From an uncultured Candidatus Saccharibacteria bacterium (GTDB lineage Bacteria > Patescibacteriota > Doudnabacteria > UBA920), in contig CAZVXT010000001.1 of NCBI GenBank assembly GCA_964631145.1, positions 457,237 through 521,236 on the forward strand: 64,000 nucleotides of DNA, given 5' to 3'. The notes below the pieces were generated by a model. The model was not told the origin of the DNA, made no database searches, and saw only the letters and a list, made by a program, of their open reading frames with translations. Below, piece after piece: positions 8,775 to 45,209 of this stretch. The translations under genes and the position numbers were made by a program. How positions within the stretch are numbered: position 1 is the stretch's first letter; each line of letters begins with the position of its first letter.

Positions 8775-9047
8775 ATGACAAAATCAGAGACTTTGCAACA
8801 TTTGGCGGAAAAAACCGGCAAGAGCAAAAAAGAAGTAAGTGAAATGTTAGAGGCAATCGTTGCCTTAGCTTACTCTGAAACAAAGAAGAGCGGTGAATTT
8901 ACTTTACCTGGTTTAGGTAAACTTCAAAAAAAGCATCGTGATGCTCGCACTGGACGCAACCCTGCAACAGGTGCAACTATTCAAATTCCTGCAAAAACTG
9001 TCATCAAGTTCCGTATTGCAAAAGCAGCTAAAGATTCAATTCTTTAA
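8775..9047 (+). CDS. hup: DNA-binding protein HU (HU/IHF family)
   Basis: MTKSETLQHLAEKTGKSKKEVSEMLEAIV..GEFTLPGLGKLQKKHRDARTGRNPATGATIQIPAKTVIKFR is an HU-fold signature; the RBS is AAAGGAAAA. Confidence 0.9.
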   Translation: MTKSETLQHLAEKTGKSKKEVSEMLEAIVALAYSETKKSGEFTLPGLGKLQKKHRDARTGRNPATGATIQIPAKTVIKFRIAKAAKDSIL

Positions 9048-9052
9048 TTTTA

Positions 9053-9087
9053 AAAAACCAGCCCTTTTTGGGCTGGTTTTTATTTTG
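9053..9087. terminator. Bidirectional intrinsic terminator between hup (+) and the response regulator (-)
   Basis: AAAAAACCAGCCCTTTTTGGGCTGGTTTTTATTTT: an A-tract before the hairpin and a T-tract after it serve both strands. Confidence 0.7.
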
Positions 9088-9092
9088 TAATG

Positions 9093-9500
9093 TTAAGCTT
9101 TAGTGTCTGGGGCAGATAAAACTTGATTTACCTTTTTTAAAATTTCTTCGGTGTCGTAGTACGCCTTCACCATATATGCTTGAACATTTAAAGCTTTAGT
9201 CTTGAGGATATCTTTATTGCTCCATAAGTTGCTAAGCACTATAATAGGAGTAGAGGCTATTTTTTTATCAGAATGGTGCCTAACTTGTTCTAGAACTTCA
9301 AACCCATCCATTTCAGGTAACATTAAGTCTAACAGTACCAAAGCTGGACCTTCTGAGATAATTTTTTCTAAACCTTCTTTTCCATCACCAGCTTGTACAA
9401 CTGTAAAGCCATTGTTAGATAGTTTATGTGCGACGATTTCTCGCATTGCAATCTCGTCTTCTACGATCAAGATTTTTTTATTTAAGTCTTGGGTTGCCAT
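9093..9500 (-). CDS. Stand-alone CheY-like response-regulator receiver domain
   Basis: KILIVEDE....LLDLMLPEMDGFEVL...PIIVLSN...KAL carries the REC-fold acidic pocket and phospho-Asp context, and there is no output domain. Confidence 0.85.
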   Translation of the reverse strand: MATQDLNKKILIVEDEIAMREIVAHKLSNNGFTVVQAGDGKEGLEKIISEGPALVLLDLMLPEMDGFEVLEQVRHHSDKKIASTPIIVLSNLWSNKDILKTKALNVQAYMVKAYYDTEEILKKVNQVLSAPDTKA

Positions 9501-9533
9501 CTCTTTTTCAATTAATTGTATTATAACATAGGA

Positions 9534-13795: not shown

Positions 13796-14847
13796 TGATA
13801 CAAAAAGAGGTTTTAGTAAAAATTATTACAGCGGGTGGACACGCTCCTTCAGGCGATAACTGCCAGCCATGGTCTGTTCGTTTGTATGACGATGGTTTTG
13901 CTCTATACAACTTACCTGATAGAGATAACTCTTTGTATAGTTTTGGGCAACGGGCTTCTATGGTTGCTTTAGGGGCTTTTATAGAAAACTGCCTTATTAA
14001 GGCAGCTGATTTGGGTTATAAAACAGATATTAAATATTTCCCTGATGGTGAAGACAGTGATTTGGTGGCTTATTTAAATTTTGAGATAAATAACGAAAGC
14101 TACGGAAACGATTTGGCTAGATTTATAGAGCAAAGAATAACAAATCGTAAAATGTATCTAGGGCAATTAGTCGAACCTCTAAAAGTTGACAAACTTTTAC
14201 AAACTAGCGATTCATTAAAGTTGGTTAGTGAGAAGTCTATGATTAATCAGCTTGGACAAATCGCTAGTATCAATGAGAGGATTTTATTTGAAAATCAGCA
14301 GATGCATAGTTTTTTTTATAACCATATAAATTGGACCGAGGAAGAAGATATAAATAAAAAAATTGGCTTTTATTTACCGACCTTAGAAATTCCTAAAAAT
14401 AAGCAATCGGGCTTTAAGTTATTTAAGCATTGGTTGGTGTGTAAAACCTTGAATGTGTTACTAGGTTTTTCTAAGATATTAGCTAAAGAAAATTCTAAGG
14501 TATATGGCTCTGCTTCAGCAATGGGTATTATTACCATTAAAGATTATAGTAAGCTTGGGTATATTAAAGCAGGACAAGAATTTCAGCGAGTTTGGCTACA
14601 AGCGACAGAACTTGGTTTAAGCTTTCAGCCTTTAACAGGAGTGCCATTTTTAAAGCTACGAATCGATAATAATAAAGCAGGAGAGTTAAGCCTTACACAT
14701 CAAAAATTAGTTAACGATGCTTATTTATCGATACAAAAAATTTTTGAGACTAATGATAGGGTGGCGATGATGTTTCGTTTAGGTTACGCAGACTCGCCAT
14801 CCGCACATTCTCGTCGTTTTAATGTTTTAGATATAATTCAGTCATAA
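13792..14847 (+). CDS. Nitroreductase-superfamily oxidoreductase, apparently two-domain (SagB/McbC-like dehydrogenase candidate)
   Basis: The N-terminal AGGHAPSGDNCQPW matches the nitroreductase PS..N.QPW signature. At 351 aa it could hold a tandem fold. A 4-nt ATGA overlap links it to the E1-like gene. Confidence 0.7.
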   Translation: MMIQKEVLVKIITAGGHAPSGDNCQPWSVRLYDDGFALYNLPDRDNSLYSFGQRASMVALGAFIENCLIKAADLGYKTDIKYFPDGEDSDLVAYLNFEINNESYGNDLARFIEQRITNRKMYLGQLVEPLKVDKLLQTSDSLKLVSEKSMINQLGQIASINERILFENQQMHSFFYNHINWTEEEDINKKIGFYLPTLEIPKNKQSGFKLFKHWLVCKTLNVLLGFSKILAKENSKVYGSASAMGIITIKDYSKLGYIKAGQEFQRVWLQATELGLSFQPLTGVPFLKLRIDNNKAGELSLTHQKLVNDAYLSIQKIFETNDRVAMMFRLGYADSPSAHSRRFNVLDIIQS

Positions 14848-14848
14848 A

Positions 14849-16513
14849 ATGGGTATAGATTTTGGAACATTTGCAAATATTGATTTATTAATCATTGGTA
14901 TTGCGATTGCGGGTATCGCTATTTTATCAATGGTTGTGTACTTAAATAATAGAAGAAGTATTACCGCTAAGTCCTTCTTGTTTTTTGCATTGATGACAAT
15001 CGCATATGGTGTTATAAATTTTTCTTCTAGCAAATTCATAGATCATGATCTTGCATTGTGGAGTTTACGTTTAACTTTATTTAGCGCAGTATGGCATGCA
15101 TTTTCTTTGTATCAGTTATTTGTGGTGTTTCCTTTGGAGCAAACGAGTTATGATTGGAAATACAAGTATATAGCTGTTCCCGCTACTATTATTGCTTCTC
15201 TTTTAACTTTAACACCATTAGTATTCTCTGGGATTAGTCAAGAGATTGCTTTTGGGCAAGTAGCAAATCCAGAAAAAGGCCCTGGTATTGCACTATTCGG
15301 TTTAGTCGCATTTGGTTTGGTATTCTCGGCTTTGTATGTGCTGATAAATAAGGTTAGAAATTCTCAAAGTTTAGAAAAGAAACAGTTAAGCACTGTCTTA
15401 ACTGGCACAATTTTTACTATGATGTTAATTTTTGTGTTTAACTTTGTCTTGCCAGTTTTTTATAATAATACTCGTTATGTACCGCTAGCACCTCTTTATA
15501 TCCTACCGTTCATAGCTTTCACGACTTACGCTATAGTTAGACACAAACTATTGGATATTAAAATAGTTGGAACAGAAATTTTAGTATTTGTCCTAGCGGT
15601 TACATCTTTAATCGAAGTTATTATTTCACAAAATTTTGGCGTTTTGTTTTTTAGAAGCAGTGTATTTTTACTAGTTTTGGGAGTAGGTGGTTTGTTGGTT
15701 AGCAGTGTGTTTAAGGAAGTTAAACAGAGACAAGAGTTGGAGATTTTGAGTACAGATTTAGCCAAGGCAAACGAAAAACTAAAATCTTTGGATAAAGCAA
15801 GGGCAGAATTTATCTCAATCGCTAGTCATCAACTAAGAACACCTCCAGCTACAATTAAATGGTATATGTCAGCAATTTTATCTGGCGACTTTGGTAAAAT
15901 ACTCCCAGAAACTTTACCAGCATTGCAAACAGTACAAGTAACTAATGATGCTCAGATTTCTACTATTGATGACTTGCTTAATGCTTCCAGGATTGAGCGA
16001 GGTAAGCTGGAATTCTTTTTTCAACCAGGCGTGATCGAGCCAATAGTACAAAATCTGGTTAATCAATTACAACCTTTGGCACAAATGAAAAAGTTGCGCA
16101 TTAATTATCAGCCACCAAAGACCACAATACCAGAGTTTATTATGGATCAGGAGAAGATTCGCCAGGTAATAAATAATATGATTGATAATGCTATTAAATA
16201 CACTAAACAAGGGGATATTGATGTAAAATTGGTTCGAAATAGAGACGGGGTTACGCTTAGTGTTTCTGACCAGGGCAAAGGTATTAGACAAGAGGATGTG
16301 AAGAAGTTATTTGCTAAATACTCCAGAGGACAAGATTCTGCTACTCAAGCAACTGGGCTAGGTTTGGGGATGTATGTTGCTAAGGTTATAGTAGAGCAAC
16401 ATAATGGAAAGATTTGGGCAGAGAGTGCGGGGCTCGATAAAGGTTCTACTTTTTCTTTCTTTATTCCATCAAAGAATAATTTAAAAGCAACTACTTTTGA
16501 TTTAACTAAGTAG
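14849..16513 (+). CDS. Sensor histidine kinase with ~7-8 N-terminal TM helices
   Basis: H-box ASHQLRTPP, N-box NMIDNAIKYT and G-box GLGLGMYVAKVIVEQHNGKIW are present. The start is 2 nt after the nitroreductase stop. Confidence 0.85.
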   Translation: MGIDFGTFANIDLLIIGIAIAGIAILSMVVYLNNRRSITAKSFLFFALMTIAYGVINFSSSKFIDHDLALWSLRLTLFSAVWHAFSLYQLFVVFPLEQTSYDWKYKYIAVPATIIASLLTLTPLVFSGISQEIAFGQVANPEKGPGIALFGLVAFGLVFSALYVLINKVRNSQSLEKKQLSTVLTGTIFTMMLIFVFNFVLPVFYNNTRYVPLAPLYILPFIAFTTYAIVRHKLLDIKIVGTEILVFVLAVTSLIEVIISQNFGVLFFRSSVFLLVLGVGGLLVSSVFKEVKQRQELEILSTDLAKANEKLKSLDKARAEFISIASHQLRTPPATIKWYMSAILSGDFGKILPETLPALQTVQVTNDAQISTIDDLLNASRIERGKLEFFFQPGVIEPIVQNLVNQLQPLAQMKKLRINYQPPKTTIPEFIMDQEKIRQVINNMIDNAIKYTKQGDIDVKLVRNRDGVTLSVSDQGKGIRQEDVKKLFAKYSRGQDSATQATGLGLGMYVAKVIVEQHNGKIWAESAGLDKGSTFSFFIPSKNNLKATTFDLTK

Positions 16514-17105: not shown

Positions 17106-17798
17106 ATGAATTATTATGATAGTTATCCTGATGTCGTAAAAGGTTCTGTAGTAACTCTTTATGACCGGGTTATTCAATTTTTACCAAATATATTTGCTGC
17201 GCTAATTGTATTATTAGTGGGGTGGGTAATTGGTATATTCTTGGGAAATTTATTTAAAAAAGCCTTAGAATCTATTGGCATTGATGGTTTAGGCGATCAG
17301 GTTGGTTTGAAAAGGCTATCCGAACGCAGTGGTCGCCATATTAAGATATCTAGTATTGTTCAATGGATTATAAAGTGGTTCTTTATACTTGCAAGTATTA
17401 TTGCTGCCGCTGATATTTTGAATTTAAATACAGTAACTAACTTCTTTTATCAAGATGTTTTGGGATATGCTGGGCATGTTGTAATTGCAGTAATTATTTT
17501 GTTATTGGGTATGCTTGCTGCAAACTTTTTGGGTGATATTGTTGAGGGGACAGTTAAGGCTGGTGGTTTTGAAGGGTCTGGGGTTTTAAGTTCTATTACT
17601 CGTTGGTCTATTACTGTTTTTGCAGTTATTGCTGCATTATCAGAATTGCAAATCGCCCAAAGCTTTTTAGCTGATTTATTTAGAGCTGTGATTGCTATGT
17701 TGGCAATTGCAGGAGGTTTGGCATTTGGACTTGGTGGCAAAGATCATGCCCGCAAAGTTCTCGATTATATAGAAAATATTATCTCTCGCCGAAATTAA
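17106..17798 (+). CDS. Multi-TM membrane protein with repeated conserved TM-helix units (MscS-associated 'TM_helix'/CmpX-like)
   Basis: Three repeated hydrophobic units follow the pattern ...NIFAALIVLLVGWVIG / ...WFFILASIIAAADILN / ...VFAVIAALSELQIAQSF. The family call rests on pattern only. Confidence 0.45.
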   Translation: MNYYDSYPDVVKGSVVTLYDRVIQFLPNIFAALIVLLVGWVIGIFLGNLFKKALESIGIDGLGDQVGLKRLSERSGRHIKISSIVQWIIKWFFILASIIAAADILNLNTVTNFFYQDVLGYAGHVVIAVIILLLGMLAANFLGDIVEGTVKAGGFEGSGVLSSITRWSITVFAVIAALSELQIAQSFLADLFRAVIAMLAIAGGLAFGLGGKDHARKVLDYIENIISRRN

Positions 17799-25348: not shown

Positions 25349-25378
25349 TAAAGCCGCAATTTGCGGCTTTATTTTATA
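25349..25378. terminator. Bidirectional intrinsic terminator after gltX
   Basis: AAAGCCGCAATTTGCGGCTTTATTTTAT. Confidence 0.7.
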
Positions 25379-25734
25379 AAATGCTTATAATTTATTTTTT
25401 TGTAAAGACTATAAAATAAAATTACGAATATGTTTATTAAGCCTAACAATACCCAAGGAAATAAAATACTAAAACCTGTATTAAGATGATCAGGGCTACC
25501 ATTATCTATGTACTCAATGGGATGGAGAATAAAATACGTTGTTAAGCTAAAAGCAGATAATAATTGCAATATTAAAAGTTTTAGAATATTAATAGACCTG
25601 CTTCTATAGAAATTAATGATTAAGTAAAGAGTTATAGCTACGCTAATAATTATTAACATTAATGGTATATAGAGTAAAATTATTGGTCCCATAAAATTGG
25701 GAAGGCTGTAGTCCATTATAAAAAAATTTGCCAT
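25369..25734 (-). CDS. Hypothetical small integral membrane protein (~4 TM)
   Basis: Supported by hydrophobicity pattern only. Confidence 0.4.
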   Translation of the reverse strand: MANFFIMDYSLPNFMGPIILLYIPLMLIIISVAITLYLIINFYRSRSINILKLLILQLLSAFSLTTYFILHPIEYIDNGSPDHLNTGFSILFPWVLLGLINIFVILFYSLYKKINYKHFIK

Positions 25735-25778: not shown

Positions 25779-26837
25779 ATGATTTTACATAAAAAAATTA
25801 TTTTATATTTTATCGTTGTTATTCTTATTGTTTTGTTAGGAGTTATATTTTGGCAAACAAAATTGACTGATAAAATTAATAACGATTCCTCCCAAATCAA
25901 CGGACACTCTTTGATAAAAAGTAAAACAGAAAGTTCGTTAGAACAAAAATTTTTAGAATGGAAAAATTCTAAAGACTTTGGCTACAATGTATTGGATTAC
26001 AAGGTTGACCCAGCAAATCCAAAAGTTATTTATTATATTTTTGCCGAAAGTACAAAAACCCCATCTCAGACTATTTATAGATATGACTCTTCTAATGATC
26101 AATCTTATAATGGTTCCGGAAGGCTTGATGTGGACAATAATAAAGTGGATCTGATTCAAGAGACTATGCCGTCGAATGATTTTGTTTTAAAAATTGCTGA
26201 TATTATTGATAATAAGATAATCTATTACGGATATGTTGACGATGGTGGTCCTATGCAGTGTTTTGATCCATTTGTGGATAATAAATTTGCGCCGTTATAT
26301 TATCTGGATTTAGTGAGTGTAAATAATTTAGATTCTAAAGTTAAGTTTGCTGATTTACAAAAACATAAATACACGCCCTCCTCAGAAATTAAAGATCAAC
26401 ATCAAAATTTAGTAGAAAAATGTAACGACAAATATAATGGTAATGCTACATATAGTAATAAAGATCTTGGTTTTTCTTTCAAATATCCAAACGAGTTGCA
26501 AATTGGTAAATCTGATTTATTTTTATGGAGTGGCTCCTTTAAAGACGGCGAATATTTATTTGATATAACAAAAGGGAATACTAATAAGTTGAACCCTAAT
26601 GAAGGTAAAAAAATAAAAATTGGTTCATCTAATCAAGGGCAAAAATTGTATGGTTATAAATTTTCGGAATGTGGGCTTGGCGGGTGTCAAAATGTTTATT
26701 TAATTCCTGTAAAAAATGACTATGTGTCCATTTTTGGTGCTATGTGCGAAAAACATTTGGAGGATGATAAATGTATTTTTAAACCCGGGGATGTATCCGT
26801 GGAAGATTTCATCCTAAATACTTTTAAAACTTTTTAA
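25779..26837 (+). CDS. Hypothetical membrane-anchored/secreted Cys-containing protein
   Basis: An N-terminal TM is followed by a hydrophilic domain with several Cys; no domain was recognised. Confidence 0.45.
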   Translation: MILHKKIILYFIVVILIVLLGVIFWQTKLTDKINNDSSQINGHSLIKSKTESSLEQKFLEWKNSKDFGYNVLDYKVDPANPKVIYYIFAESTKTPSQTIYRYDSSNDQSYNGSGRLDVDNNKVDLIQETMPSNDFVLKIADIIDNKIIYYGYVDDGGPMQCFDPFVDNKFAPLYYLDLVSVNNLDSKVKFADLQKHKYTPSSEIKDQHQNLVEKCNDKYNGNATYSNKDLGFSFKYPNELQIGKSDLFLWSGSFKDGEYLFDITKGNTNKLNPNEGKKIKIGSSNQGQKLYGYKFSECGLGGCQNVYLIPVKNDYVSIFGAMCEKHLEDDKCIFKPGDVSVEDFILNTFKTF

Positions 26838-26844
26838 AAAAATA

Positions 26845-26892
26845 AGCCGAATAATATTATAATTGCATAAATATTATTCGGCTGTTTTTATT
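26845..26892. terminator. Long AT-rich hairpin terminator between convergent genes
   Basis: AGCCGAATAATATTATAATTGCATAAATATTATTCGGCTGTTTTTATT. Confidence 0.55.
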
Positions 26893-28747
26893 GATTATTT
26901 TGTCCTAGCGGAGGGTCTGAGTTAGACTGTTCTGGTGACGTTTTTTCTAATTCGTCAGCAGAAGCATCATCGTCTTCAGCTTTGCTAGAAATTTGGTTGG
27001 AATAGAAGTCTGAGAAGAATTCTCGCGCTTCTTCTGTTGGGGCGACAACTACATGGTAGCAGTTGTTGTTTTCGCGGACCCAAGATATCATTCCCGCAGA
27101 TTCTAAATCTGTTAAAACAAATTCAATATCTGACTTTTCATCAGCGGTAAGCGATGAATAGGGAATATCAAATGCTAATCCATAGTAATGCCAAGATTTG
27201 TCTTTGGTGGCAAATCTATTAGTTTTTGTAATTTGGTTCTGATACCAAATTGTTCTTGTGTATGAACTTATATCAAAACTAACTGCTTGCTTGGATTTGC
27301 TATTGCGTAATTCTTGAAGCGCAGTAGCAACGTATAGTAGCATTCCAGTTGTGTATTTGTAAGCGTAGTGGTAATACTTTCTATCACTTACATTTGGATC
27401 ACTAGAACCTAAGGGTCTAACGGTGTATCCGTATTTATCTCCTTTTGGTATCGGAACCAAAGTGCCATCTTTAACCTTATTTTTTAAATCATCCATATCC
27501 TTAAAGGCAGGATCATTGTGTTGGTTAAAAAATGACCACATTCTACTTTTTTGTGCCTTGCCTTTATAAAATTGTTGCTTGGACAGAGTAATAAATTGAT
27601 CTTTATTTGTTCTATACAACGTCATCAAATTTTTCCAGCAAGCCACTTTAAACCAATAACGGGGCGACCAATCTTTTTGAGTTAAAGTTTTGATCATTTG
27701 GTATGTTCCGCCATTATGGTATGGTGTGTTACGAAAGAATATATCACGGTAGTGAATATTATACTTTTGCAGAGCTTGTTTTACAGTGCCTTCAATTTGC
27801 TTTGGTGCAATATACATCATAATAAGTTTGGTTAAAGCACCTCTTCCCATATGATATTCTACAACTGCAAATTGCCAGTCACCATAAGTATCGTAAGAAT
27901 CTTTAAGTGCCCTTGCTGCAGCGGGGATAGCTAGTTCTGGATTGTAGCGGTCATCTCGACCATCTTCAATTACCAGTCCAACTTCACGCGCCCTAGCTTT
28001 AGAAAACATCGCGATCCCACATGGTCCAGTTGGGCTGGCTCCAGTAGATTTGCCTTGATTTTCTGTTAGCAGTAAAGCCTCTAATAAATTTGGATCCAAT
28101 CCCACAGCGTTGGCAGATTCTTCGATTAAGGAACGATATTCCATAATTCGATCTGGTGCTTCTCGCTGAGGGTCTGTTTTTAAAACATTAAACGATTGAG
28201 TTTGTATATACTCTTGTTCCCGCTTTACCAAATCTTCATCCTTTGCTTTTACCCGAGATAAACCCAAACTTTCTTTTGCAGATTTTGGATTTATTTTTAT
28301 GGGTAAGATCGTTGGTTGAGGGGTTGGTAGAGTCGGTGTTTCCGAGTTTTTAACTTCTTCGTTTGCAATTTTTTTGGAAACAGATTTGCTAGACCATATT
28401 CTAATTGCTATATAAGCAAATATGGTTGTATTTAGAATTGCCGCTAAACAGATTACGCAAATTGTTGTCGCTACTATAGCCTTAGTTTTTGAGCTAAGTC
28501 TTTTAAGGTAACGACCAAAATTATCCAATTTTACGCTAATAATTTTCCCATACCACTTAGTTTCTTTATATAGTTCTGGTAAATTCATACCAGCTAATTG
28601 AGAAATAACTGTGATGGTAAATTTAGTCCAAAAGATAATCTTTTCAAAATTATTTCTGGATACATAAAAATCAGAATTGAGCCATGCAATTCTTATCCTC
28701 TTAAACACACCTAGTAAGGAACTAGGATTTAAATAGCTTTTCTTCAT
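26888..28747 (-). CDS. Membrane-anchored protein with lytic-transglycosylase (SLT)-like domain and Pro-rich linker
   Basis: ..EESANAVGLDPNLLEALLLTENQGKS..GPCGIAMF.. resembles the SLT E-S...GLMQ signature. An N-terminal TM is present. Confidence 0.55.
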   Translation of the reverse strand: MKKSYLNPSSLLGVFKRIRIAWLNSDFYVSRNNFEKIIFWTKFTITVISQLAGMNLPELYKETKWYGKIISVKLDNFGRYLKRLSSKTKAIVATTICVICLAAILNTTIFAYIAIRIWSSKSVSKKIANEEVKNSETPTLPTPQPTILPIKINPKSAKESLGLSRVKAKDEDLVKREQEYIQTQSFNVLKTDPQREAPDRIMEYRSLIEESANAVGLDPNLLEALLLTENQGKSTGASPTGPCGIAMFSKARAREVGLVIEDGRDDRYNPELAIPAAARALKDSYDTYGDWQFAVVEYHMGRGALTKLIMMYIAPKQIEGTVKQALQKYNIHYRDIFFRNTPYHNGGTYQMIKTLTQKDWSPRYWFKVACWKNLMTLYRTNKDQFITLSKQQFYKGKAQKSRMWSFFNQHNDPAFKDMDDLKNKVKDGTLVPIPKGDKYGYTVRPLGSSDPNVSDRKYYHYAYKYTTGMLLYVATALQELRNSKSKQAVSFDISSYTRTIWYQNQITKTNRFATKDKSWHYYGLAFDIPYSSLTADEKSDIEFVLTDLESAGMISWVRENNNCYHVVVAPTEEAREFFSDFYSNQISSKAEDDDASADELEKTSPEQSNSDPPLGQNNQ

Positions 28748-28862
28748 AAAAAGCCTCCTTTGATAGATTTTTTGTGGAAAAATTGAAGTTCTCCAGCGAA
28801 GTCATAGTAATATGACATCAAATTATACGTTATTGTAATTATTTTGTCAAGTATAATGGTAT

Positions 28863-28891
28863 TGACAATTAATTAAATCTATACTATAATA
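28863..28891 (+). promoter_or_regulatory. Sigma-70-like promoter
   Basis: TTGACA-17nt-TATAAT, followed by a GGAGGA RBS 7 nt before the ATG at 28969. Confidence 0.6.
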
Positions 28892-28968
28892 TTGGTGCTT
28901 AAAATATTTTAGGCAAATTCAAAACTCGCTGACCATCCAAAAAGGTCACAAAAATGGAGGACATACCT

Positions 28969-29568
28969 ATGAAAACAGTTATTGATTTTCTCAAAACCGC
29001 GAAATCAATCAACTTATTGATTTTAACTTTATTTGCATTTTCAATTCTTGGACTCTTAATTTGGCATTTTGCCGGTATTATTAAGTCCATGCATCTGAAT
29101 ATACCCTTAGGATTTTGGTATTTATTTATCTTTTCTTTATTTTTGATTAGCTTAGGAAAATTTTATGTTTACCCTAGTATAAAAAATAAAGAAATTGCTA
29201 AAAATACTAACGATTCCAAAAAGCTCACTCCAGCCAAAAGAATCGAACTTCTAATTTATCCCGTCATGCTTCTATTAGTTGCTAATATTGCTTTTACTAA
29301 TTATAAAGCCGATACTAGCTATCTACTTATAAGTCAATCTAATAACAACACTTGCCCAAGTGCTGTAAAAGGGGAGACTCTTAGTGCTTCTGCTGAACTT
29401 GAAGCTACTTTGGAAGAAAAAACTGATTCCGATACGCCCGTATCTACAGTAAATGATGAGAATAAAGAAAAAATAGAAGAAAAGCCTAAAGAAGAAGATA
29501 CTTTAACTGATAGAATCAAAAAAACTATCGTAGATTACTTCTTGGATAAAGTTAAAAAGAATATATAA
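28969..29568 (+). CDS. Hypothetical membrane protein with acidic Glu/Lys-rich C-terminal tail
   Basis: The start was reassigned to the ATG preceded by GGAGGA. Three predicted TMs are present. Confidence 0.5.
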   Translation: MKTVIDFLKTAKSINLLILTLFAFSILGLLIWHFAGIIKSMHLNIPLGFWYLFIFSLFLISLGKFYVYPSIKNKEIAKNTNDSKKLTPAKRIELLIYPVMLLLVANIAFTNYKADTSYLLISQSNNNTCPSAVKGETLSASAELEATLEEKTDSDTPVSTVNDENKEKIEEKPKEEDTLTDRIKKTIVDYFLDKVKKNI

Positions 29569-29701: not shown

Positions 29702-30994
29702 ATGAATTTGAATAATATCAAAAATAAAATTAGCAAATTTTTTATCGGAGCTACTGCTTTAGTAGCAATTTTTGGCTATGTTTTTCCAGTGTCGGCACAA
29801 CAAAACAATGATAACCGTAAAGACGCATTGCAGTTAAGATTAAATCAAATCAAAAGTCAGATAAATAGTTATCAACAGCAAATTAGTCAATATAAAAATC
29901 AAGCAGCTAGTTTGAAAAATGAAATTGGTATTTATGATAATCAAATCAGCTCTTTAGAATTACAAATCCAGGCTAATGAAACTCAAACCGAAGATGCTAA
30001 TTTACAAATTAATGAGCTACAGATTCAAATAGATAAGCGCAAAGCAGAAATTGAAGAGAATAAAGCTTTAATGGGGCAATTAATAGCTCAATTGGCTGAG
30101 TTAGATGGTAATTCTTTTTTGCAAATGGGACTTGGTAGCGATGATTTTTCAAGTTTCTTGGATCAGGTTCAATATACAAAAAGTGTTCAAAGTAAAGTTT
30201 ATGACTTAGTTTCAAAAATTAAGGAAATTAAGCAAAAGTTAGAAACTCAACAGAAGGATTTAAAAGAACAATTGCAAAAGTTGGAATCATTAGCAGAGCA
30301 ACTGGGTATTAGTCAAGATGCGTTAGAATCACAACGTAAATCTAAAGAGTCACTGCTTAGTCAGACTAAAGGCGCAGAAAGCAATTATCAAAAATTGTTG
30401 TCACAAAGTAAGAGCGAACAGGATCAGCTAACTAAAGAAATTAATGATCTAGATTCCGCAGCTCAGTCTAAAGGTGGTAAATCCATCTCTGTTAGTAAAG
30501 GTATTTTGGGTTGGCCAATGGATGGTGTAATGTCCCAGGGTTATGGTAATACTGGATTCACTTCTTTGGGTTATAATTTTCACAACGGTGTAGATATTAC
30601 TGCGCCAGCAGGAAAGCCTATTTATGCTCCAGCTGATGGTACAGTTGCAAATTGTGATACTGGAGAAGCAGCTTATGGAAATTGGTGTACTATTAGACAT
30701 ACTATTGAAACTAAAAATGGTAAGAGAAATATTGTTACTTTGTTTGGTCATATGAGGTCATACAAAGTTAAGCCTGGTCAAAAAGTCGAGCGTGGAGATC
30801 TTATCGGTTATGAAGGAAACACCGGTAATACAACTAGATTGTTATATGGACCAGAACGTGGTTATCATTTGCATTTTACTGTTTTTGACGCAGATACTTA
30901 TAAGGTAACAAAAGGTCAATACACATCAGTCTACGGAAGTTATTCTATACCATCAGGATATACTTATAACCCGTTAGAATTTTTAGGTAAATAA
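29702..30994 (+). CDS. M23 (LytM-type) peptidoglycan metalloendopeptidase with long N-terminal coiled coil (EnvC-like)
   Basis: A signal/TM and Q-rich heptad repeats are followed by ..HNGVDITAPAGKPIYAPADGTV.. ..HLHFTV. Confidence 0.85.
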   Translation: MNLNNIKNKISKFFIGATALVAIFGYVFPVSAQQNNDNRKDALQLRLNQIKSQINSYQQQISQYKNQAASLKNEIGIYDNQISSLELQIQANETQTEDANLQINELQIQIDKRKAEIEENKALMGQLIAQLAELDGNSFLQMGLGSDDFSSFLDQVQYTKSVQSKVYDLVSKIKEIKQKLETQQKDLKEQLQKLESLAEQLGISQDALESQRKSKESLLSQTKGAESNYQKLLSQSKSEQDQLTKEINDLDSAAQSKGGKSISVSKGILGWPMDGVMSQGYGNTGFTSLGYNFHNGVDITAPAGKPIYAPADGTVANCDTGEAAYGNWCTIRHTIETKNGKRNIVTLFGHMRSYKVKPGQKVERGDLIGYEGNTGNTTRLLYGPERGYHLHFTVFDADTYKVTKGQYTSVYGSYSIPSGYTYNPLEFLGK

Positions 30995-30999
30995 ATTTT

Positions 31000-32049
31000 G
31001 TGAGAAAATTTTATAACCCACTTAAAATCGGTTTGCTTGTCAGCATGCTTATATTTCAGTTATTAGCATATTCGCCGTATGCACAAGCACAAGGTTTGCC
31101 TGATCCTTTAAAGCCGAGCACGTCTGTTACATCTAACGATCTTCCAAAATACAATGCAGGGGTTGACCAGAGCATTAAAGATTATCTTTGTACTCCAAAT
31201 GATAATAATTTGGGAGTCGGTTTGTATGATTGTATAACTAGATTATACAAATTTGGTATTTCTTTTGGTGCTATTGTACTGGTATTTTTCGTTGTATATG
31301 CAGGATATTTATATATAATTTCTGGAGAAAAGGGGAAGGGGAGTGCAAAAAATTATATAAGTAGCGCAATAACAGGAATGATAATTATACTTTCCAGTTA
31401 TGTACTATTAAATTTTATTAGTCCAGAATTAGTAAAGTTTAAGCCTATTCAGCCGCCAATTTTTAGTGCAGCCGATTTGCCTAAATGTGAAGATATCGGG
31501 TTTAGCACAAACTGTATTGTTGGTGATCCGACTAGCCCAAATGTTGGGCAGGTGGTTTATAGTGGTAAGACAAGCGGTGGTAGTTGTCGAATTTCTAATA
31601 CCGCTGGATGTGCTGTTGGTGTAATGAAGCAATGTAGTTTATGGAATCCAGAAGATGCATCTCGTATATGTAATTTAGAAAGTGGTGGGGGAACTAAACT
31701 TAATATTGCTAGTGGTAGCGACAAATGTACTGCGGATGGGACGCCTTTTTCTTATGGGTTGTGGCAATTCAATTTGACTGTTCATCAAGGGCAATCTTAT
31801 ATGCCTGCAGCATGTCAGAAAAAGTTATTTAGCGGAGTTAACTTTGGTTGTAGATTGATAGTTTCAAAAGCAGAGTTGGATGCTTGTGTAAACGCTTTGG
31901 GTACTGCGGAAGCCCAAACAAAAGCTGCATGTGGATTGTATCAACAAAGTAAATTTAATCCATGGAAATGTTCTGCCTTTCGATGTCAGATTTCTGGATA
32001 TGGTAATCCGAATAGTAAATATTGCCCAGCAACATTCCCAGCTAGATAA
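31000..32049 (+). CDS. Secreted/membrane protein: signal peptide + two-TM pilin-like module + Cys-rich lysozyme/lytic-transglycosylase-like C-terminal domain
   Basis: The signal peptide ends ...AYSPYAQA|QG. Then come DLPKYNAGVDQSIKDYLC, two TM helices and KPIQPPIFSAADLP. The C-terminal domain carries CNLESGGG ... SYGLWQFN (an E-S...GLxQ-type signature). Confidence 0.6.
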   Translation: MRKFYNPLKIGLLVSMLIFQLLAYSPYAQAQGLPDPLKPSTSVTSNDLPKYNAGVDQSIKDYLCTPNDNNLGVGLYDCITRLYKFGISFGAIVLVFFVVYAGYLYIISGEKGKGSAKNYISSAITGMIIILSSYVLLNFISPELVKFKPIQPPIFSAADLPKCEDIGFSTNCIVGDPTSPNVGQVVYSGKTSGGSCRISNTAGCAVGVMKQCSLWNPEDASRICNLESGGGTKLNIASGSDKCTADGTPFSYGLWQFNLTVHQGQSYMPAACQKKLFSGVNFGCRLIVSKAELDACVNALGTAEAQTKAACGLYQQSKFNPWKCSAFRCQISGYGNPNSKYCPATFPAR

Positions 32050-32065
32050 ATATTTTATAAAATAT

Positions 32066-32521
32066 ATGAGTATAAATACCAAATTAACAATTTTATTAGC
32101 AGTAGTATTTTTAATATGTACATCAGTTGTAATTTATTTTGTTTTGCAACAAAATAAAAGCTCTAATAATACACCAATTAAATCTGGCAACTCTGGTATT
32201 TATTCTGAAGAGCAATTAAAACAGAGTGCTATTAAATCTGATATGGATATATTAACTTTAGCTGATCAACCTGACTTTTATATTACATATTCGCTTACTG
32301 CAAAAGAATTTATAATCGAATTAACACCTCAAGATTTATCTACAGATTATAATCAATTAAGACTTCAAGCTGAAGACTCATTTTTAAATTTATTAAAGAT
32401 AGGGGATAAGCAAAAATTATGTGGACAAAACATTTCTGTGCTGGTGCCGCCGTCTTATAAACCAGAATACTCAGGATTTAACTATGGTTTAAGTTTTTGT
32501 ACAGGATCATTAAAATTTTAG
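32066..32521 (+). CDS. Hypothetical small membrane-anchored protein
   Basis: The ATG at 32066 gives an N-terminal TM (LTILLAVVFLICTSVVIYFVL). The longer upstream ORF would overlap the preceding gene. Confidence 0.4.
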   Translation: MSINTKLTILLAVVFLICTSVVIYFVLQQNKSSNNTPIKSGNSGIYSEEQLKQSAIKSDMDILTLADQPDFYITYSLTAKEFIIELTPQDLSTDYNQLRLQAEDSFLNLLKIGDKQKLCGQNISVLVPPSYKPEYSGFNYGLSFCTGSLKF

Positions 32522-32531
32522 GTAATTAAAT

Positions 32532-33251
32532 ATGAACGAAAATAATTTGCAAGAAAATAAAAATAGCAATATTAATTGGTGGCTTATATCGCTAGCGATT
32601 GTGATTGGATTTTGGCTAGTTGCTATGGGTATTGTTGTAGCTGGTTGGTTAATATCAAAAGAAATGGCAAAAAAAGAAATCGGTACCAATCCATATGCTC
32701 AAGTATCTAACAAAATTGATTTTGCTACCGATGACCAAATGCCTTCACTCGGGGATGCTAATAGTAAGGTTAATTTTGTTTTATTTGCTGATTTTCAATG
32801 TCCTTATTGTAAACAATTTCATGACGAAGTATATCCGCAATTGAAAAAAGAATTTATAGATACTAACAAAATTAAATTTACATTTGCTGATTTTGCTTTT
32901 TTGGGAGAGGAGTCTAAACAGGCGGCAAGTGCATCTAGGTGTGCTCTAGAGCAAAATAAATATTGGGAATATTTTGACTATTTATACAACCACCAAGCGG
33001 GCGAAAATGAAGGTGGCTTTTCAGATGAAAATTTAAAAACGTTTGCAGAGGTTTTAGGTTTGGATAAAACTAAATTCAATTCTTGTATTGATAGTGCAAA
33101 ATACAAAACAACAATAGAAAATCTAACTAAATCAGCTAGCGATGCCGGTGTTTCTTCTACGCCTACAATATTAATAAATGGTTTAAAATTTGAAGGTGTG
33201 TTGCCATACGAAAATTTAAAACAAATAATTTTATCAGAACTATCTAAGTAG
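32532..33251 (+). CDS. DsbA-family thiol:disulfide oxidoreductase (membrane-anchored)
   Basis: An N-terminal TM is followed by FQCPYCKQFHDE, a thioredoxin-fold CxxC, and a DsbA-like helical insert. Confidence 0.8.
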   Translation: MNENNLQENKNSNINWWLISLAIVIGFWLVAMGIVVAGWLISKEMAKKEIGTNPYAQVSNKIDFATDDQMPSLGDANSKVNFVLFADFQCPYCKQFHDEVYPQLKKEFIDTNKIKFTFADFAFLGEESKQAASASRCALEQNKYWEYFDYLYNHQAGENEGGFSDENLKTFAEVLGLDKTKFNSCIDSAKYKTTIENLTKSASDAGVSSTPTILINGLKFEGVLPYENLKQIILSELSK

Positions 33252-33274
33252 CTTTGTATTAAAGGATTTAATAT

Positions 33275-34960
33275 ATGAATCATAGTAAGTTTTTTAAAAA
33301 AATATTTATTATTACCTTATCGATAATTTTATTAAATCCTTTGTTTGTTTATGCTCAAGGTTCTACAGGTGCTAAGCCTACTAGTACAACCTCTAAAACT
33401 CCTACAACACAAGCTCCAACTCAGATCAACACTAACCCCACTTCTAGTGATTTACCAAAATATAATGCAGGGGTTGATCAAAGTATAAAAGATTATTTGT
33501 GTTCGCCATCAAATGACGGTAATGATTTGGTTAGATGTATAAATAGAGTATATAAATTTGGTGTATCATTTGGCGCCATTGTTTTGGTATTTTTTGTAGT
33601 TCTTGCTGGATATATTTATATTATGCAAGGAGAAAGTGGCAAAGCAAAAGCTAAGAATATTTTACAAAATTCTATTGTGGGGATGGGTATATTGCTTGGT
33701 AGCTATGTGTTACTATATTTTATCAATCCACAACTTACAACTTTTAAACCTATTCAGCCACCAATTTTTAGTGCAGCCGATTTGCCTTCATGTGAAGAAG
33801 TGGGATTTGGTACTAATTGTGTAATAACAACAGGAGCAAATGCAGGGCAGGTTGTAGATGGAGATGGGGCATGTGCCATGCCTTTGGATGCGACTAAAGT
33901 AAAAGGGTTTAATGCCACAGTTCATAACCCTTGGGATAATAATCCCGCAACACCGGATAGGCATAGAACAGTTCATTATCAGCCTAATAGTCCACCGCCA
34001 GAAGGTGCTGTAGATGCTGCAATGGGTAAAGGTAATCCATCTGCTTCTGTTTTTGCTCCAATCTCAGGAAAGGTGTATGTCCGTAAAGACCTTGGTGATG
34101 GTACCGGTAGTTATATTACCATTACCTCAGATACCAGACCTGGAGCAGATTGTTCTAATGCCAATCGTTGTGCGAGTTTGGCTCACATTGATCCTTCTGT
34201 TCAAGTAGGAAATTCTGTAACTGCTGGACAACAAGTAGGGATTACTCATATGTATACAGGTTCTCTTGGACCTCATTTGCATTTTGAATTAAAGTTAAAT
34301 GGACAGTGGATTACTGGAGACGGTAAATCAGGAACATGGGGAAATATGAAATCAGCATTATCTTCATGTAAAGCTAATAATGGTGGAGATACTCCTTCAG
34401 GTTTGGTGAATGCAAATAGCATTGTTCCTAGTTTGCAAGTAGATATGCAGTATGCTTCCGCTATTCCTTCTAGTAATAATTTCACTAAGACTGCTTTATA
34501 TATCGGCAATGATGCAAAGTTCGGCTCAGCATGTTTCTTGACCAAAGACATGGCTAATAAGTTAAAAGTTGCTTATGAACAATTGCAAAAACTAAAACCT
34601 GGTTGGAAAATAAAAGCATGGGATTGTTATAGGCCAATGTCCATACAACAAAAAATGTATGATATAGTTCAAAATGATTCTAATAAAAATAATGATGGTC
34701 TTGTGGCAAAACCTACTGATACCGCCCAGCATCCGCGTGGCGTTGCTATAGATGCAACATTGGTAGATGCAAATGGTAAAGATGTTTCAATGCCAACATA
34801 CTTTGATTATTATAATAAGTCCGATCCAAAGCAGGATCCAGGTACTAGTTCTTATAACTCGTCTCCTTATAAAAATAATTCAGAGATATTAAATTCTATT
34901 ATGACTTCTGCTGGACTAATTAGGGCTGGTACTGAATGGTGGCATTTTGGATTGCCTTAA
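33275..34960 (+). CDS. Secreted/membrane protein: same pilin-like N-terminal module + M23 peptidase domain + M15 (VanY/LAS-type) D,D-peptidase domain
   Basis: The N-terminal ~190 aa are ~70% identical to the 31000 gene. The M23 domain shows ..FAPISGKVYV.. ..HLHFEL.. The M15 domain shows ..AQHPRGVAIDA.. ..EWWHFG. Confidence 0.75.
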   Translation: MNHSKFFKKIFIITLSIILLNPLFVYAQGSTGAKPTSTTSKTPTTQAPTQINTNPTSSDLPKYNAGVDQSIKDYLCSPSNDGNDLVRCINRVYKFGVSFGAIVLVFFVVLAGYIYIMQGESGKAKAKNILQNSIVGMGILLGSYVLLYFINPQLTTFKPIQPPIFSAADLPSCEEVGFGTNCVITTGANAGQVVDGDGACAMPLDATKVKGFNATVHNPWDNNPATPDRHRTVHYQPNSPPPEGAVDAAMGKGNPSASVFAPISGKVYVRKDLGDGTGSYITITSDTRPGADCSNANRCASLAHIDPSVQVGNSVTAGQQVGITHMYTGSLGPHLHFELKLNGQWITGDGKSGTWGNMKSALSSCKANNGGDTPSGLVNANSIVPSLQVDMQYASAIPSSNNFTKTALYIGNDAKFGSACFLTKDMANKLKVAYEQLQKLKPGWKIKAWDCYRPMSIQQKMYDIVQNDSNKNNDGLVAKPTDTAQHPRGVAIDATLVDANGKDVSMPTYFDYYNKSDPKQDPGTSSYNSSPYKNNSEILNSIMTSAGLIRAGTEWWHFGLP

Positions 34961-35017: not shown

Positions 35018-35052
35018 AAAAACCCACAACAGAATAATTGTGGGTTTTAATT
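35018..35052 (+). terminator. Intrinsic terminator
   Basis: AAAAACCCACAACAGAATAATTGTGGGTTTTAATT. Confidence 0.65.
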
Positions 35053-39583: not shown

Positions 39584-39852
39584 ATTACATATTTGGTAAT
39601 TTCTTCGTTAAAATGCTCCGGTAATTTTCACTGTAGTTATAACTACAGCTCAAATTATCCCCACATTTTGCCTCGAATTTACTCAAATATCTAATTTACC
39701 ACGAAGACTTCTAAGATTTTATATACATGCAATCTTCCCAAATATTAATTGGCTCGCCAGCTTATTAGTTAACTGGAAGTTTTTACAAGTTAAGTTTTGT
39801 TAATCGAGGCATCGCCAAAAGCGAAATTGATTAGCAAATTGCAGAAGTTCTT

Positions 39853-40137
39853 ATGGCTCATAAGAAAGCTGGTGGATCTACTAGTTTAGGTCGCGATTCT
39901 GTCTCCAAGCGTCTTGGTGTTAAAGTTTTTGGTAACCAACGTATTAGTAAAGGTGAAATTATTGTTCGTCAACACGGTAATAAATTTCATGCTGGAAAAA
40001 ATGTTAACAACGGTGGCGATAATACTCTTTATTCTCTAATCGATGGTATTGTGAAGTTTCAAGTTAAAATGGTTCGTAAGTTCCATGGTAACCTCCGCAA
40101 AACTAAAATCGTTAGCGTAGAACCACTTCAGAAATAA
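39853..40137 (+). CDS. rpmA: 50S ribosomal protein L27 with short C-terminal extension
   Basis: [42 protein letters not shown].. Confidence 0.93.
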
Positions 40138-40143
40138 TTAAAA

Positions 40144-40168
40144 ACACCCTCATAGGGTGTTTTTAATT
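40144..40168. terminator. Bidirectional intrinsic terminator
   Basis: AAAAACACCCTCATAGGGTGTTTTTAATTTT. Confidence 0.7.
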
Positions 40169-43614: not shown

Positions 43615-44532
43615 TTAAATCTTTAAATATTTACGCATTGCCCAAAGACTGGAAATCGTACTTAGGGTAAAAGCAATAATTAGTTGTAATAAAATAACTA
43701 GTAAGAAATTGATAATATTACCATTGAAAATCTGATTTCCAGGAGCTAGATACATACCAATTTTAGGTAAAATATTAAAATAAATTGGCGTTAATAGTAT
43801 GCTGGTAATAATTGCTGCAATTACGCTATACATTAAAGCTTCGACTATAAATGGACCTCTAATATACCAATTTGTTGCACCTACTAAGCGCATTATTTCT
43901 ACTTCTTCTCGCCTGTTGTATATAGTTAAGGCAATTGTATTAAATATTACTAAGATTGCAATCAAGCAGAAAACTGTCATCAAAATAAGCCCGAAAGTGA
44001 TAATAAATTTTAGTAATGTATTTAATCTATTAATTATTACTCTGTTATCTTCAAAGTTTACTTTTTCAATTTTATCTTTGTATTTATCCGAAGAAAGATT
44101 TTCAGCTATAGCGCTATAATCATCTAGATTATCTGCTTTAATTTGAAGTGTTGCTGGTAAAGGATTTTCTGACAACTCATCGATAGATTCCATTATAAGT
44201 TTGTCGTTTTTATGTTTTTCTTTAAAATCCCTAAAAGCTTGCTCTGATGAGATGTAGGTAACAGTTTTTACTTTAGGATTAGACCTAAGATCATCTCTAA
44301 CCACTAATATTTGAGGTTCTGTGGTGCCTGTTTTGAAATAAGCACTAATATCTACTCTTTGTTGGATGGATTCTATAGAGTAGTTAGTAATTATAAACAA
44401 TAAACTTAGGACAGATAAAATAATCAAGGTAACAGTCATGATTAGAGTGGATGCACCTGCTAGCCATAAGTTTCTTTTTAGATTAAGAATACCGTTTTTA
44501 ATTATACGGTAAAGAGAAATAAGTGACTTCAT
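43615..44532 (-). CDS. ftsX: Cell-division ABC-transporter-like permease FtsX
   Basis: It has FtsX topology: TM1, a large extracytoplasmic loop and three C-terminal TMs. It overlaps ftsE by 1 nt. Confidence 0.85.
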   Translation of the reverse strand: MKSLISLYRIIKNGILNLKRNLWLAGASTLIMTVTLIILSVLSLLFIITNYSIESIQQRVDISAYFKTGTTEPQILVVRDDLRSNPKVKTVTYISSEQAFRDFKEKHKNDKLIMESIDELSENPLPATLQIKADNLDDYSAIAENLSSDKYKDKIEKVNFEDNRVIINRLNTLLKFIITFGLILMTVFCLIAILVIFNTIALTIYNRREEVEIMRLVGATNWYIRGPFIVEALMYSVIAAIITSILLTPIYFNILPKIGMYLAPGNQIFNGNIINFLLVILLQLIIAFTLSTISSLWAMRKYLKI

Positions 44533-45209
44533 TATAGTTTGTACTTTCCTTTCTCTTGCTCTAATGTAACTTGCCCACCTTCGATAGTAATTACACGCTT
44601 TTTTATTTTGTTAACAATATCAGCTGCGTGGGTTGCAAGAATTACAGTTGTGCCTAGTTTATTAATCTTCAAAAGAAGATCAATGACTTCTGCTGCATTA
44701 ATTTCGTCTAAGTTTCCGGTCGGTTCGTCTGCTAATAGCAAAACAGGTCTATGTGATAGGCTTCTTGCAATAGCAACGCGTTGCTTTTCGCCGCCACTCA
44801 TTTCATGAGGAAAACTCTCTTGTTTATGTCCAAGTCCAACTAACTCTAAAATTTTAGGTACGTCTTTGAGAATTTGTTCTTTTCTATGTCCGGCTACTTC
44901 CATGGCAAAAGCTACATTTTCAAATGCAGTCCTCTTTGGGAGCAATTTTATATCTTGAAATACGGTTCCGATTTTACGTCTGAGATAAGGCAGATCGGAT
45001 TTTTTGATGCGTGACATATCTATATCATCAATCAAAATGCTTCCATCGTCTAGTTCTTCTTCTCCGATGATAAGCTTCATTAAAGTAGATTTTCCTGCAC
45101 CGCTCATCCCTACCAAAGAAATAAACTCCCCTTGCTTAATATGCAAGTTGATGTTGTTTAAAGCTTTGTGATCACCGTAATATTTTATAACGTTTTTAAA
45201 CGTAATCAT
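44532..45209 (-). CDS. ftsE: Cell-division ATP-binding protein FtsE
   Basis: Walker A GMSGAGKST, the ABC signature LSGGEKQRVAIAR and Walker B LLLADEPTGNLD are present. Confidence 0.93.
   Translation of the reverse strand: MITFKNVIKYYGDHKALNNINLHIKQGEFISLVGMSGAGKSTLMKLIIGEEELDDGSILIDDIDMSRIKKSDLPYLRRKIGTVFQDIKLLPKRTAFENVAFAMEVAGHRKEQILKDVPKILELVGLGHKQESFPHEMSGGEKQRVAIARSLSHRPVLLLADEPTGNLDEINAAEVIDLLLKINKLGTTVILATHAADIVNKIKKRVITIEGGQVTLEQEKGKYKL

Follow-up and report, generated by a model that had tools for sequence, protein, structure and literature searches.

Pilin-like proteins and anchored wall hydrolases related to the locus

VirB2-like pilins of the Pfam family PF18895 (T4SS_pilin), which is related to PF04956 (TrbC/VirB2), are found in 1,948 Patescibacteria assemblies (PMC12102498). 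They are small standalone proteins of ~100-180 aa with a signal peptide, two transmembrane (TM) helices and a short basic loop, and a genome holds several paralogues with non-pilin genes between them (e.g., SEML1_0014-0019 of Southlakia epibionticum). In S. epibionticum, a type IV secretion system (T4SS) cluster with six small pilins is essential, and lysozyme and peptidase genes adjoin virB4 (PMC10633639). T4SS and VirB2-like pilin arrays are essential in the sole genetically tractable Saccharibacterium (PMC10633639, PMC11665869), and no Patescibacterial T4SS pilus has been visualised so far (PMC12857230). Here, we describe an operon of five genes, A to E, in a 64-kb stretch of contig CAZVXT010000001.1 from an uncultured Candidatus Saccharibacteria bacterium (GCA_964631145.1). 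This stretch is referred to as the window and supplies all coordinates unless a relative is named. Two of the five genes, B and E, encode a VirB2-like hairpin joined to predicted peptidoglycan hydrolase domains.

The VirB1-like hydrolases of conjugation systems in Gram-positive bacteria, namely PrgK (pCF10), TraG (pIP501) and CwlT (ICEBs1), resemble B and E, as predicted here, in being membrane-anchored, in combining lytic-transglycosylase or muramidase domains with peptidase domains (LytM/M23, CHAP, NlpC/P60), and in acting on the wall beside the membrane. Their anchors are simple TM segments or signal peptides, whereas the anchor of B and E is a pilin homologue. Moreover, they are encoded inside T4SS operons, whereas genes B and E lie in a housekeeping locus, with the exception of one relative of B, P0229, which is considered below. 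The FtsEX-coupled proteins PcsB, CwlO, RipC and EnvC resemble A, which likewise has a signal/anchor segment, a coiled coil of ~220 aa and a C-terminal hydrolase domain. The Pfam architecture PF18895 + PF18896 (SLT_3, a lysozyme-like domain) is also similar to B: two homologues, P0210 and P0128, exceed the gathering thresholds of both families and can be aligned with B from end to end, although B itself falls below the PF18895 threshold and has no SLT_3 match. The component families are known and the architecture is already implicit in Pfam. We found no characterised member of PF18895 or PF18896, and no paper in the full-text literature searched names PF18896. Pilin-hydrolase fusions go unmentioned in PMC12102498, PMC10633639 and a 2025 T4SS review (PMC12857230), and no description of a widespread combinatorial class of such proteins was found in the full-text literature searched.

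Genes A to E are five open reading frames (ORFs) in succession on the + strand at 29702-34960, in agreement with the original prediction, which a model had made from the sequence alone, and they form one tight operon with intergenic gaps of 5, 16, 10 and 23 nt. Gene A (29702-30994, 430 aa) encodes a coiled-coil protein, secreted or anchored, that ends in an M23 metallopeptidase domain. Gene B (31000-32049, 349 aa, with a GTG start backed by the N-termini of its orthologues) encodes a signal peptide, the VirB2-like pilin hairpin module, a flexible linker and a Cys-rich, probably SLT_3-type lysozyme-like domain. Gene C (32066-32521, 151 aa) encodes a small N-terminally anchored protein, gene D (32532-33251) a membrane-anchored DsbA-like thiol-disulfide oxidoreductase, and gene E (33275-34960, 561 aa) a signal peptide, a second pilin-like module, an M23-like domain and a VanX-type M15 domain. 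The relatives used for comparison were a Patescibacteria metagenome-assembled genome (MAG; L001), a Saccharibacteria MAG (L002), the complete 943-kb CP064996.1 (L004/L005), and L006, L007, L008 and L011.

Two copies of a VirB2-like pilin module

The module shared by B and E is N-terminal and 130-150 aa in size (residues ~45-175 of B, 31132-31524, +; residues ~57-184 of E, 33443-33826, +). In B, the signal peptide is followed by a DLPKYNAGVDQSIKDYLC...C segment, TM1, the basic loop GEKGKGSAKN, TM2, KPIQPPIFSAADLP and the Cys-rich C-terminus, a layout that the original prediction had described correctly. TM2 ends in an (N/S)P motif (SP in B, NP in E), which is followed by KPIQPPIFSAADLPKCxxxGxxxxC; after TM2, B reads KPIQPPIFSAADLPKC and then enters a domain with 12 further Cys. 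Hydrophobic segments span residues 10-28, 79-110 and 119-145 of B, with equivalents in E. The AlphaFold2 (AF2) model of B contains helices at residues 71-107 and 109-140, with a predicted local distance difference test score (pLDDT) of 83-89, and a linker in which pLDDT drops below 50 at residues 149-156 and 179-192.

Neither module reaches the PF18895 gathering threshold of 26.6 bits: B scored 21.7 bits (E-value 2.2e-4, residues 86-140) and E 20.2 bits (E-value 6.2e-4, residues 85-147). The orthologous proteins of L001 and L002 were also sub-threshold, with 17.9 and 24.7 bits, and one of them touches PF04956. Among B and its 120 best homologues, the set scanned against Pfam, PF18895 was matched by 65 of the 121 sequences at E-values of 1e-3 or lower (best 1.8e-25), and PF04956 (TrbC) by four. 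Full-length homologues exceeded the PF18895 threshold (P0210, 32.3 bits; P0129, 38.8 bits; P0148, 37.7 bits; P0139, 33.3 bits), and P0210 aligned to residues 17-329 of B with an E-value of 9e-57. Furthermore, 14 positions of the module are near-invariant over 150 homologues, including L63, C64, P66, C78, Y83, A101, G102, Y103, Y105, K117, L137, N141 and P142. Because homologues pass PF18895, these positions are conserved, and B and E themselves give sub-threshold scores, the module is, by transitivity, a true member of the VirB2-like pilin superfamily, which has only recently been reported from Patescibacteria. The TrbC/VirB2-type topology proposed earlier is borne out by this profile relationship across homologues: B and E have the signal peptide, two TM helices and short positive loop of PF18895 pilins. 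As the positive-inside rule puts the basic loop in the cytoplasm, the N-terminal Cys segment and the entire C-terminal enzyme would lie outside the membrane.

It could be argued that the shared region is a generic signal peptide plus hydrophobic linker without family meaning, or a prophage holin-like lysis module. B and E do fall below the Pfam gathering threshold, and a two-helix hairpin is a low-information fold for which Foldseek returned generic helical hairpins only. The 14 near-invariant positions, the PF18895 matches in more than half of the sequences scanned and the full-length homologues above threshold nevertheless speak for a real family, as the original prediction had supposed, and we consider this alternative highly improbable. 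The hairpin is also preceded by a cleavable signal peptide, and the operon has a chromosomal housekeeping context with no phage genes in it. On the grounds of the housekeeping synteny and the signal peptide, we rejected a prophage lysis cassette or holin.

B and E nevertheless depart from the VirB2-like pilins in several respects. At 349 and 561 aa they exceed the size of the standalone proteins, they carry C-terminal hydrolase domains of 190-400 aa, they have an extra conserved Cys-containing N-terminal segment and a conserved linker after TM2, and they are encoded far from any virB4.

The two modules appear to be products of an old duplication. B and E matched each other in BLASTP with an E-value of 4e-63 and 66% identity over 151 aa, and their modules shared 70% amino-acid identity over 129 aligned codons, close to the ~70% first noted. 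The ~85% nucleotide identity claimed with it was not recovered: we measured 67-69%, with third codon positions 53% identical and a longest common word of 27 nt. The synonymous divergence (dS) of ~1.5, against a nonsynonymous divergence (dN) of 0.25, rules out the recent duplication that had been proposed. In the window, L001 and L008, the two modules of a locus are at least as close to each other as to their same-position orthologues, whereas in L002, L004, L006 and L007 modules cluster by position; bootstrap support is weak outside that large clade. This pattern would fit an old duplication followed by some homogenisation or co-evolution. A tblastn search of the window revealed no third copy of the module.

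Predicted hydrolase domains and accompanying proteins of the operon

The C-terminal domain of B (residues ~192-349, 31573-32049, +) contains the motif CNLESGGG...SYGLWQFN and is probably a lysozyme/lytic-transglycosylase-like (SLT_3) domain. The lysozyme call of the original prediction had no direct Pfam match or PDB sequence match, so the assignment rests on homologues and motifs. Relative to the PF18896 cutoff of 27 bits, orthologues of B scored 15-21 bits, while P0210 (29.9 bits) and P0128 (28.2 bits) passed, and the alignment of P0210 extends through the Cys-rich domain of B. In two alignments of B-type C-terminal domains (A4, 29 sequences; A5, 25 sequences), E227 (NLES) as well as G253 and Q256 (GLWQ) are invariant and S228 is near-invariant. 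Five Cys are invariant in both (C272, C284, C296, C329 and one more), with four more near-invariant. Canonical SLT domains with the same ES and GLxQ motifs fill the same slot in relatives. A comparison of the B domain with these SLT-bearing relatives by hhalign was not significant (E-value 0.068) and brought no more than the ES and GLxQ motifs into register, and a profile of the domain found nothing significant among PDB sequences. AF2 modelled the domain with pLDDT above 90, and a Foldseek search with the model gave no PDB or BFVD match for it.

Protein E combines two peptidase-type domains, as first proposed. Its M23-like domain (residues 246-345, 34010-34309, +) matched Peptidase_M23 with 41.7 bits (E-value 1.4e-10; cutoff 28.7). 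One correction is needed: the first His of the HxxxD motif is replaced (EGAVD), while the D, AHI and HLH are kept. This position varies among E, Q, T, L and R in the family alignment, and a conserved upstream His could substitute for the lost one. The M15 domain (residues 376-561, 34400-34957, +), of the D-Ala-D-Ala dipeptidase/VanX type, matched Peptidase_M15 above threshold with 77.1 bits (E-value 2.1e-21) and has intact metal and catalytic motifs (HPRGVAID at 486 for HxxGxAxD, EWWH at 554 for ExxH). It scored 89 bits against the NCBIfam D-alanyl-D-alanine dipeptidase model, below the equivalog cutoff, and matched VanX in the PDB (1r44) with an E-value of 3.6e-4.

Gene A also encodes what had been predicted. 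It has a hydrophobic signal/anchor segment at residues 10-32, weak coiled-coil-type matches along residues 33-255 (~220 aa) and a Peptidase_M23 match above threshold at residues 293-396 (82.7 bits, E-value 2.2e-23). The HxxxD and HxH motifs are intact (HNGVD at 294, HLH at 389), and by its motifs A is predicted to be catalytically intact. In this it differs from EnvC, whose M23 domain is degenerate, and the EnvC equivalog model gave A only 21.5 bits against a cutoff of 270. An orthologue of A lies immediately 5' of the first fusion gene in L001, L004, L006, L007 and L008.

Protein D is, as proposed, a membrane DsbA: it matched Thioredoxin_4 with 131.9 bits (E-value 3.3e-38) and DSBA with 59.2 bits (E-value 6e-16), and carries CPYC at residue 90 as well as a TM segment near its N-terminus (residues 12-43). 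Its gene occupies the same position in L004, L006 and L007 and is absent from L001, L002 and L008. B and E contain 16 and 10 Cys, respectively, all predicted to be extracytoplasmic, in keeping with the earlier suggestion that the DsbA serves disulfide-dependent, Cys-rich enzymes.

The small anchored gene C is present, with its start corrected by orthologue comparison: it most likely begins at 32066 and does not overlap B. Its product has a conserved Cys pair and a YGLSFC C-terminus, no Pfam match and only six detectable homologues; the AF2 model (pLDDT 51) was unusable. Between the two fusion genes there is in every case a slot for one small protein with an N-terminal anchor, drawn from either of two unrelated families, C being of the "type I" kind. 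In the relatives the slot lies at 7798-8328 (L001), 853-1368 (L002), 11100-11549 (L004), 11121-11576 (L006), 8752-9261 (L007) and 1490-2014 (L011). The Cys-pair/YGLSFC family co-occurs with the DsbA gene in four of five loci.

Interchangeable hydrolase domains on one scaffold

B and E are members of a very large family, here mainly from Patescibacteria, in which a VirB2-like hairpin is combined with interchangeable hydrolase domains. An exhaustive phmmer search with full-length B as the query recovered 5,156 relatives at E-values of 1e-3 or lower and 368 at 1e-10 or lower, counted as cluster representatives; a word-indexed search with the module only had returned no match, owing to an index limit. 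Among the top 150 relatives, a sample biased to long matches because the query was full-length B, the median extension after the module was ~190 aa and only six proteins lacked one. Pfam matches and clustering assigned 39 C-termini to the SLT_3-like Cys-rich type, and ~42 formed a type with a weak HxH-like ending and no family assignment. The further types were canonical SLT, M23+M15, M23+C39_2, M15_4, Amidase_2, glucosaminidase-like, CHAP, VanY and GDSL. All assigned domains are of a wall-active type.

The exchange of domains is apparent both within a lineage and at a single locus. In a Colwellbacteria-type lineage (P0230-P0245), modules 79-98% identical over 85 aa occur on four protein types: VanY/M15, CHAP, Amidase_3+CHAP and M23+beta-lactamase-like. 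In syntenic genomes, the first fusion gene encodes an SLT_3-like domain in the window, L004, L006 and L011, an SLT domain in L001, L002 and L007, and a glucosaminidase-like domain in L008. The second encodes M23+M15 in the window and L004, M23+C39_2 in L001 and M15_4 in L007, and has no assigned type in L002, L006 and L008. The idea of a common scaffold onto which different hydrolases have been swapped is thus strongly supported by these comparisons, and the family would represent one pilin scaffold used thousands of times as an anchor for every major class of cell-wall hydrolase. It further provides a ready-made catalogue of muralytic domains, rich in disulfides, from uncultured bacteria.

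Some members depart from the arrangement of one N-terminal module per protein. The P0243 module lies inside the protein, preceded by an amidase domain. P0110, P0112 and P0130 (461-983 aa) contain three to four or more tandem modules in one polypeptide, which suggests that the hairpins may pack side by side. Tandem-module genes (L009, 10765-12150; L010, 3226-6177 and 8438-10876) are clustered with genes for pilin+M23(+beta-lactamase-like) fusions and conserved small proteins of ~197 aa and 149 aa. These clusters adjoin an MS_channel_1st_1 gene, a domain also encoded in the window at 17106-17798.

Conserved locus and proposed function

The operon lies among housekeeping genes, and its position is vertically conserved. 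The window contains rpoA, rpsD, def, fmt, GluRS, IscS, CTP synthase, L9 and FtsX/FtsE genes, together with those for a release factor (RF), thyA, folA, L1, L11, gyrB and PheRS. In L001, L002, L004, L006, L007, L008 and L011, the order def, CAP, WecG/NUDIX, GluRS, coiled-coil M23 gene, first fusion gene, small gene, DsbA gene (present or absent), second fusion gene, IscS on the - strand and, further on, L9, FtsX and FtsE is kept; CP064996 has a third module+hydrolase gene in the locus. The original prediction had read the genes as an attack toolkit rather than housekeeping autolysins, a view it made dependent on the module not being a common anchor of such enzymes in related genomes. Since the module is a widespread hydrolase anchor in related genomes, and the locus is syntenic with def-fmt, GluRS, IscS and L9-FtsXE, that view is not supported.

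Given this setting, our preferred reading, to which we would give about an even chance, is that the operon encodes an extracytoplasmic, membrane-tethered set of peptidoglycan hydrolases that would remodel the cell's own wall in growth and daughter-cell separation, and might perhaps open passages for envelope machines. The operon begins with a coiled-coil M23 gene of the FtsEX-partner type, and ftsX and ftsE lie within the same 64-kb region (43615-45209, on the strand opposite to the operon) and are syntenic with it in relatives. A might thus act as an FtsEX-controlled endopeptidase. B would cut glycan strands and E would trim or cleave stem peptides via its M15 domain; because the first His of HxxxD is replaced, the M23-like domain of E may be either active or regulatory. 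D would oxidise the Cys of B and E, and C could be an accessory or regulatory protein. The hairpin, together with a disordered linker of ~35-50 residues, would hold the enzymes to membrane-proximal wall, and side-by-side packing of the hairpins in the manner of pilins would gather different activities in one membrane patch.

Several observations weigh against own-wall remodelling. The operon does not adjoin ftsEX, which lies 8.6 kb downstream of it, although the genes of FtsEX-coupled coiled-coil proteins are usually found with or near ftsEX. S. epibionticum ML1 lacks the operon, its annotation table listing seven PF18895 entries and none for PF01551, PF01464, PF13539 or PF18896, and the operon is therefore not a universal housekeeping requirement; owing to this absence, no essentiality data from the S. 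epibionticum transposon-sequencing (Tn-seq) tables apply to it. The pilins to which the anchor of B and E is homologous include standalone members in the essential S. epibionticum T4SS cluster (PMC10633639). Most Patescibacteria with VirB2 homologues have no recognisable VirB1 near virB4 (PMC12102498), and pilin-hydrolase fusions could fill that role. Finally, P0229, a distant B-type protein with a pilin-like hairpin and an SLT_3-like domain (aligned to residues 87-262 of B, E-value 4e-17), is encoded two genes downstream of a VirB4-like ATPase (P-loop_TraG, 88 bits), beside dnaA. The order at this locus (L014, 69-5231) is VirB4-like ATPase, 327-aa secreted protein, P0229 and 449-aa anchored protein, abutting jag-yidC-yidD-rnpA-rpmH and dnaA-dnaN. 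Thus, the family has members inside T4SS loci.

These points bear on a second explanation, in which the hairpin is recognised by the T4SS assembly machinery, so that the hydrolases act as a VirB1 substitute at the channel or as minor or tip subunits of a VirB2-type pilus, cutting the peptidoglycan of the producer or of a host where the pilus crosses it. The homology of the module to PF18895 and TrbC pilins, the place of P0229 near the origin, the lysozyme and peptidase genes beside virB4 along with essential pilin arrays in S. epibionticum (PMC10633639) and the general lack of VirB1 near virB4 (PMC12102498) are all in its favour. Against it, the T4SS genes that the original prediction had suggested looking for are missing here: no VirB4, VirB6 or VirD4 homologue was found among the ORFs scanned in the 64-kb window, on which ground we rejected the operon as part of a T4SS locus, and no T4SS gene lies within ±10 kb of the locus in six relatives (flanks of L004-L008 included). 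In addition, the first gene of the operon is a coiled-coil M23 gene of the division type, and no Patescibacterial T4SS pilus has yet been seen (PMC12857230). On balance, we regard coupling to a T4SS or pilus as the main rival, less probable than own-wall remodelling.

A narrower form of this idea is less probable still. In known conjugative pili, as the structures of the F- and T-pilus show, both ends of the pilin point outward, and a filament could thus display a C-terminal domain carried by a long linker. Domains of 20-45 kDa would probably be bulky for regular packing in a pilus shaft. We think it unlikely that the fusions are true minor or tip subunits of a Patescibacterial T4SS-type pilus with their own interchangeable peptidoglycan cutters. 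If they were, the filament would bore through the wall of the host or of the cell itself, and the diversity of the terminal enzymes would track host wall chemistry.

The distinction between own-wall remodelling and pilus coupling matters for how pilin arrays are interpreted. The survey of PMC12102498 accepted VirB2 matches with an independent E-value (i-E) below 0.001 and more than 50% coverage of the hidden Markov model, and B matches with an E-value of 2.2e-4 and 75% coverage of the model. Such fusions have therefore probably been counted as "VirB2" away from virB4, with their enzymatic domains unnoticed. Either many of the counted Patescibacterial "pilins" are autolysins tethered to the membrane, or there is a physical coupling between the pilus system and wall degradation; both outcomes alter the interpretation of pilin arrays and bear on the role of the essential T4SS and VirB2-like pilin arrays in Saccharibacteria.

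The conserved linker raises a third explanation, in which the hairpin is a Sec/YidC-dependent pro-domain that is cut at the KPIQPPIF/LPxC linker, releasing soluble lysins that attack the walls of hosts or competitors for nutrients. TrbC- and VirB2-type pilins are processed C-terminally, B, E and their orthologues strongly conserve the motif directly after TM2, disorder is predicted for the linker, and the enzyme set covers the peptidoglycan bond types. Saccharibacteria are epibiotic and can be lytic (PMC10633639, PMC11880426). Nevertheless, the operon contains no protease gene, more distant lineages have other sequence in place of the linker motif but retain the NP motif that closes TM2, and the chromosomal synteny with division genes is conserved. 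A cleavable export carrier thus seems rather unlikely to us, and membrane-tethered remodelling of the cell's own wall remains the reading we prefer.

Flanking signals and other features of the window

Upstream of the operon, a candidate sigma-70-like promoter at 28862-28890 (+) matches TTGACA-17-TATAAT at 12 of 12 positions and may drive a 204-aa membrane-protein gene together with genes A to E. This is a consensus match, and the total of promoter-like sites in the region is not above that of shuffled sequence. A mirror site, also 12 of 12, occurs on the - strand at 28850-28822. The two perfect sites stand back to back on opposite strands (28822-28890) between the 619-aa and 204-aa genes and look like a divergent promoter pair. 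Downstream, a 12-bp hairpin with A/T runs on both sides (35019-35048) lies between E and the convergent cysteine desulfurase gene and is a candidate bidirectional terminator. Transfer RNA and Rfam scans of the window gave no RNA genes.

Between the GluRS gene and gene A, the window has a four-gene insert (25369-25734, -; 25779-26837, +; 26888-28747, -; 28954-29568, +). The gene at 26888-28747 encodes a 619-aa TM-anchored protein with SLT (E-value 1.1e-14) and DUF5715 domains and an M15-like HxxGxAxD motif (WHYYGLAFD). As the block has no counterpart in any syntenic relative, it is a lineage-specific insertion with a further bifunctional wall hydrolase.

Gene orientation changes from + to - at ~39600-40150, where the cumulative GC skew peaks. 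In CP064996.1 (L004), the syntenic locus occupies roughly the middle of the 943-kb chromosome (508-529 kb), so that the operon might be close to the terminus of replication.

Elsewhere in the window, a 454-aa protein (61117-62481, -) with a bacterial TSP3 repeat and a weak C-terminal T2SSG (type IV pilin-like) match represents the sole type IV pilus-related signal seen. At 4285-8547, a sortase gene comes after the gene for a 1197-aa surface protein that has a SpaA/SdrD-type prealbumin-like domain. Genes at 9516-16513 encode an aromatic amino-acid ammonia-lyase (541 bits), a 507-aa protein without a Pfam match, a ThiF-family protein, a nitroreductase-like protein and a 7TM histidine kinase. They may represent a small-molecule or peptide-modification cluster, which would be unusual in a reduced genome.

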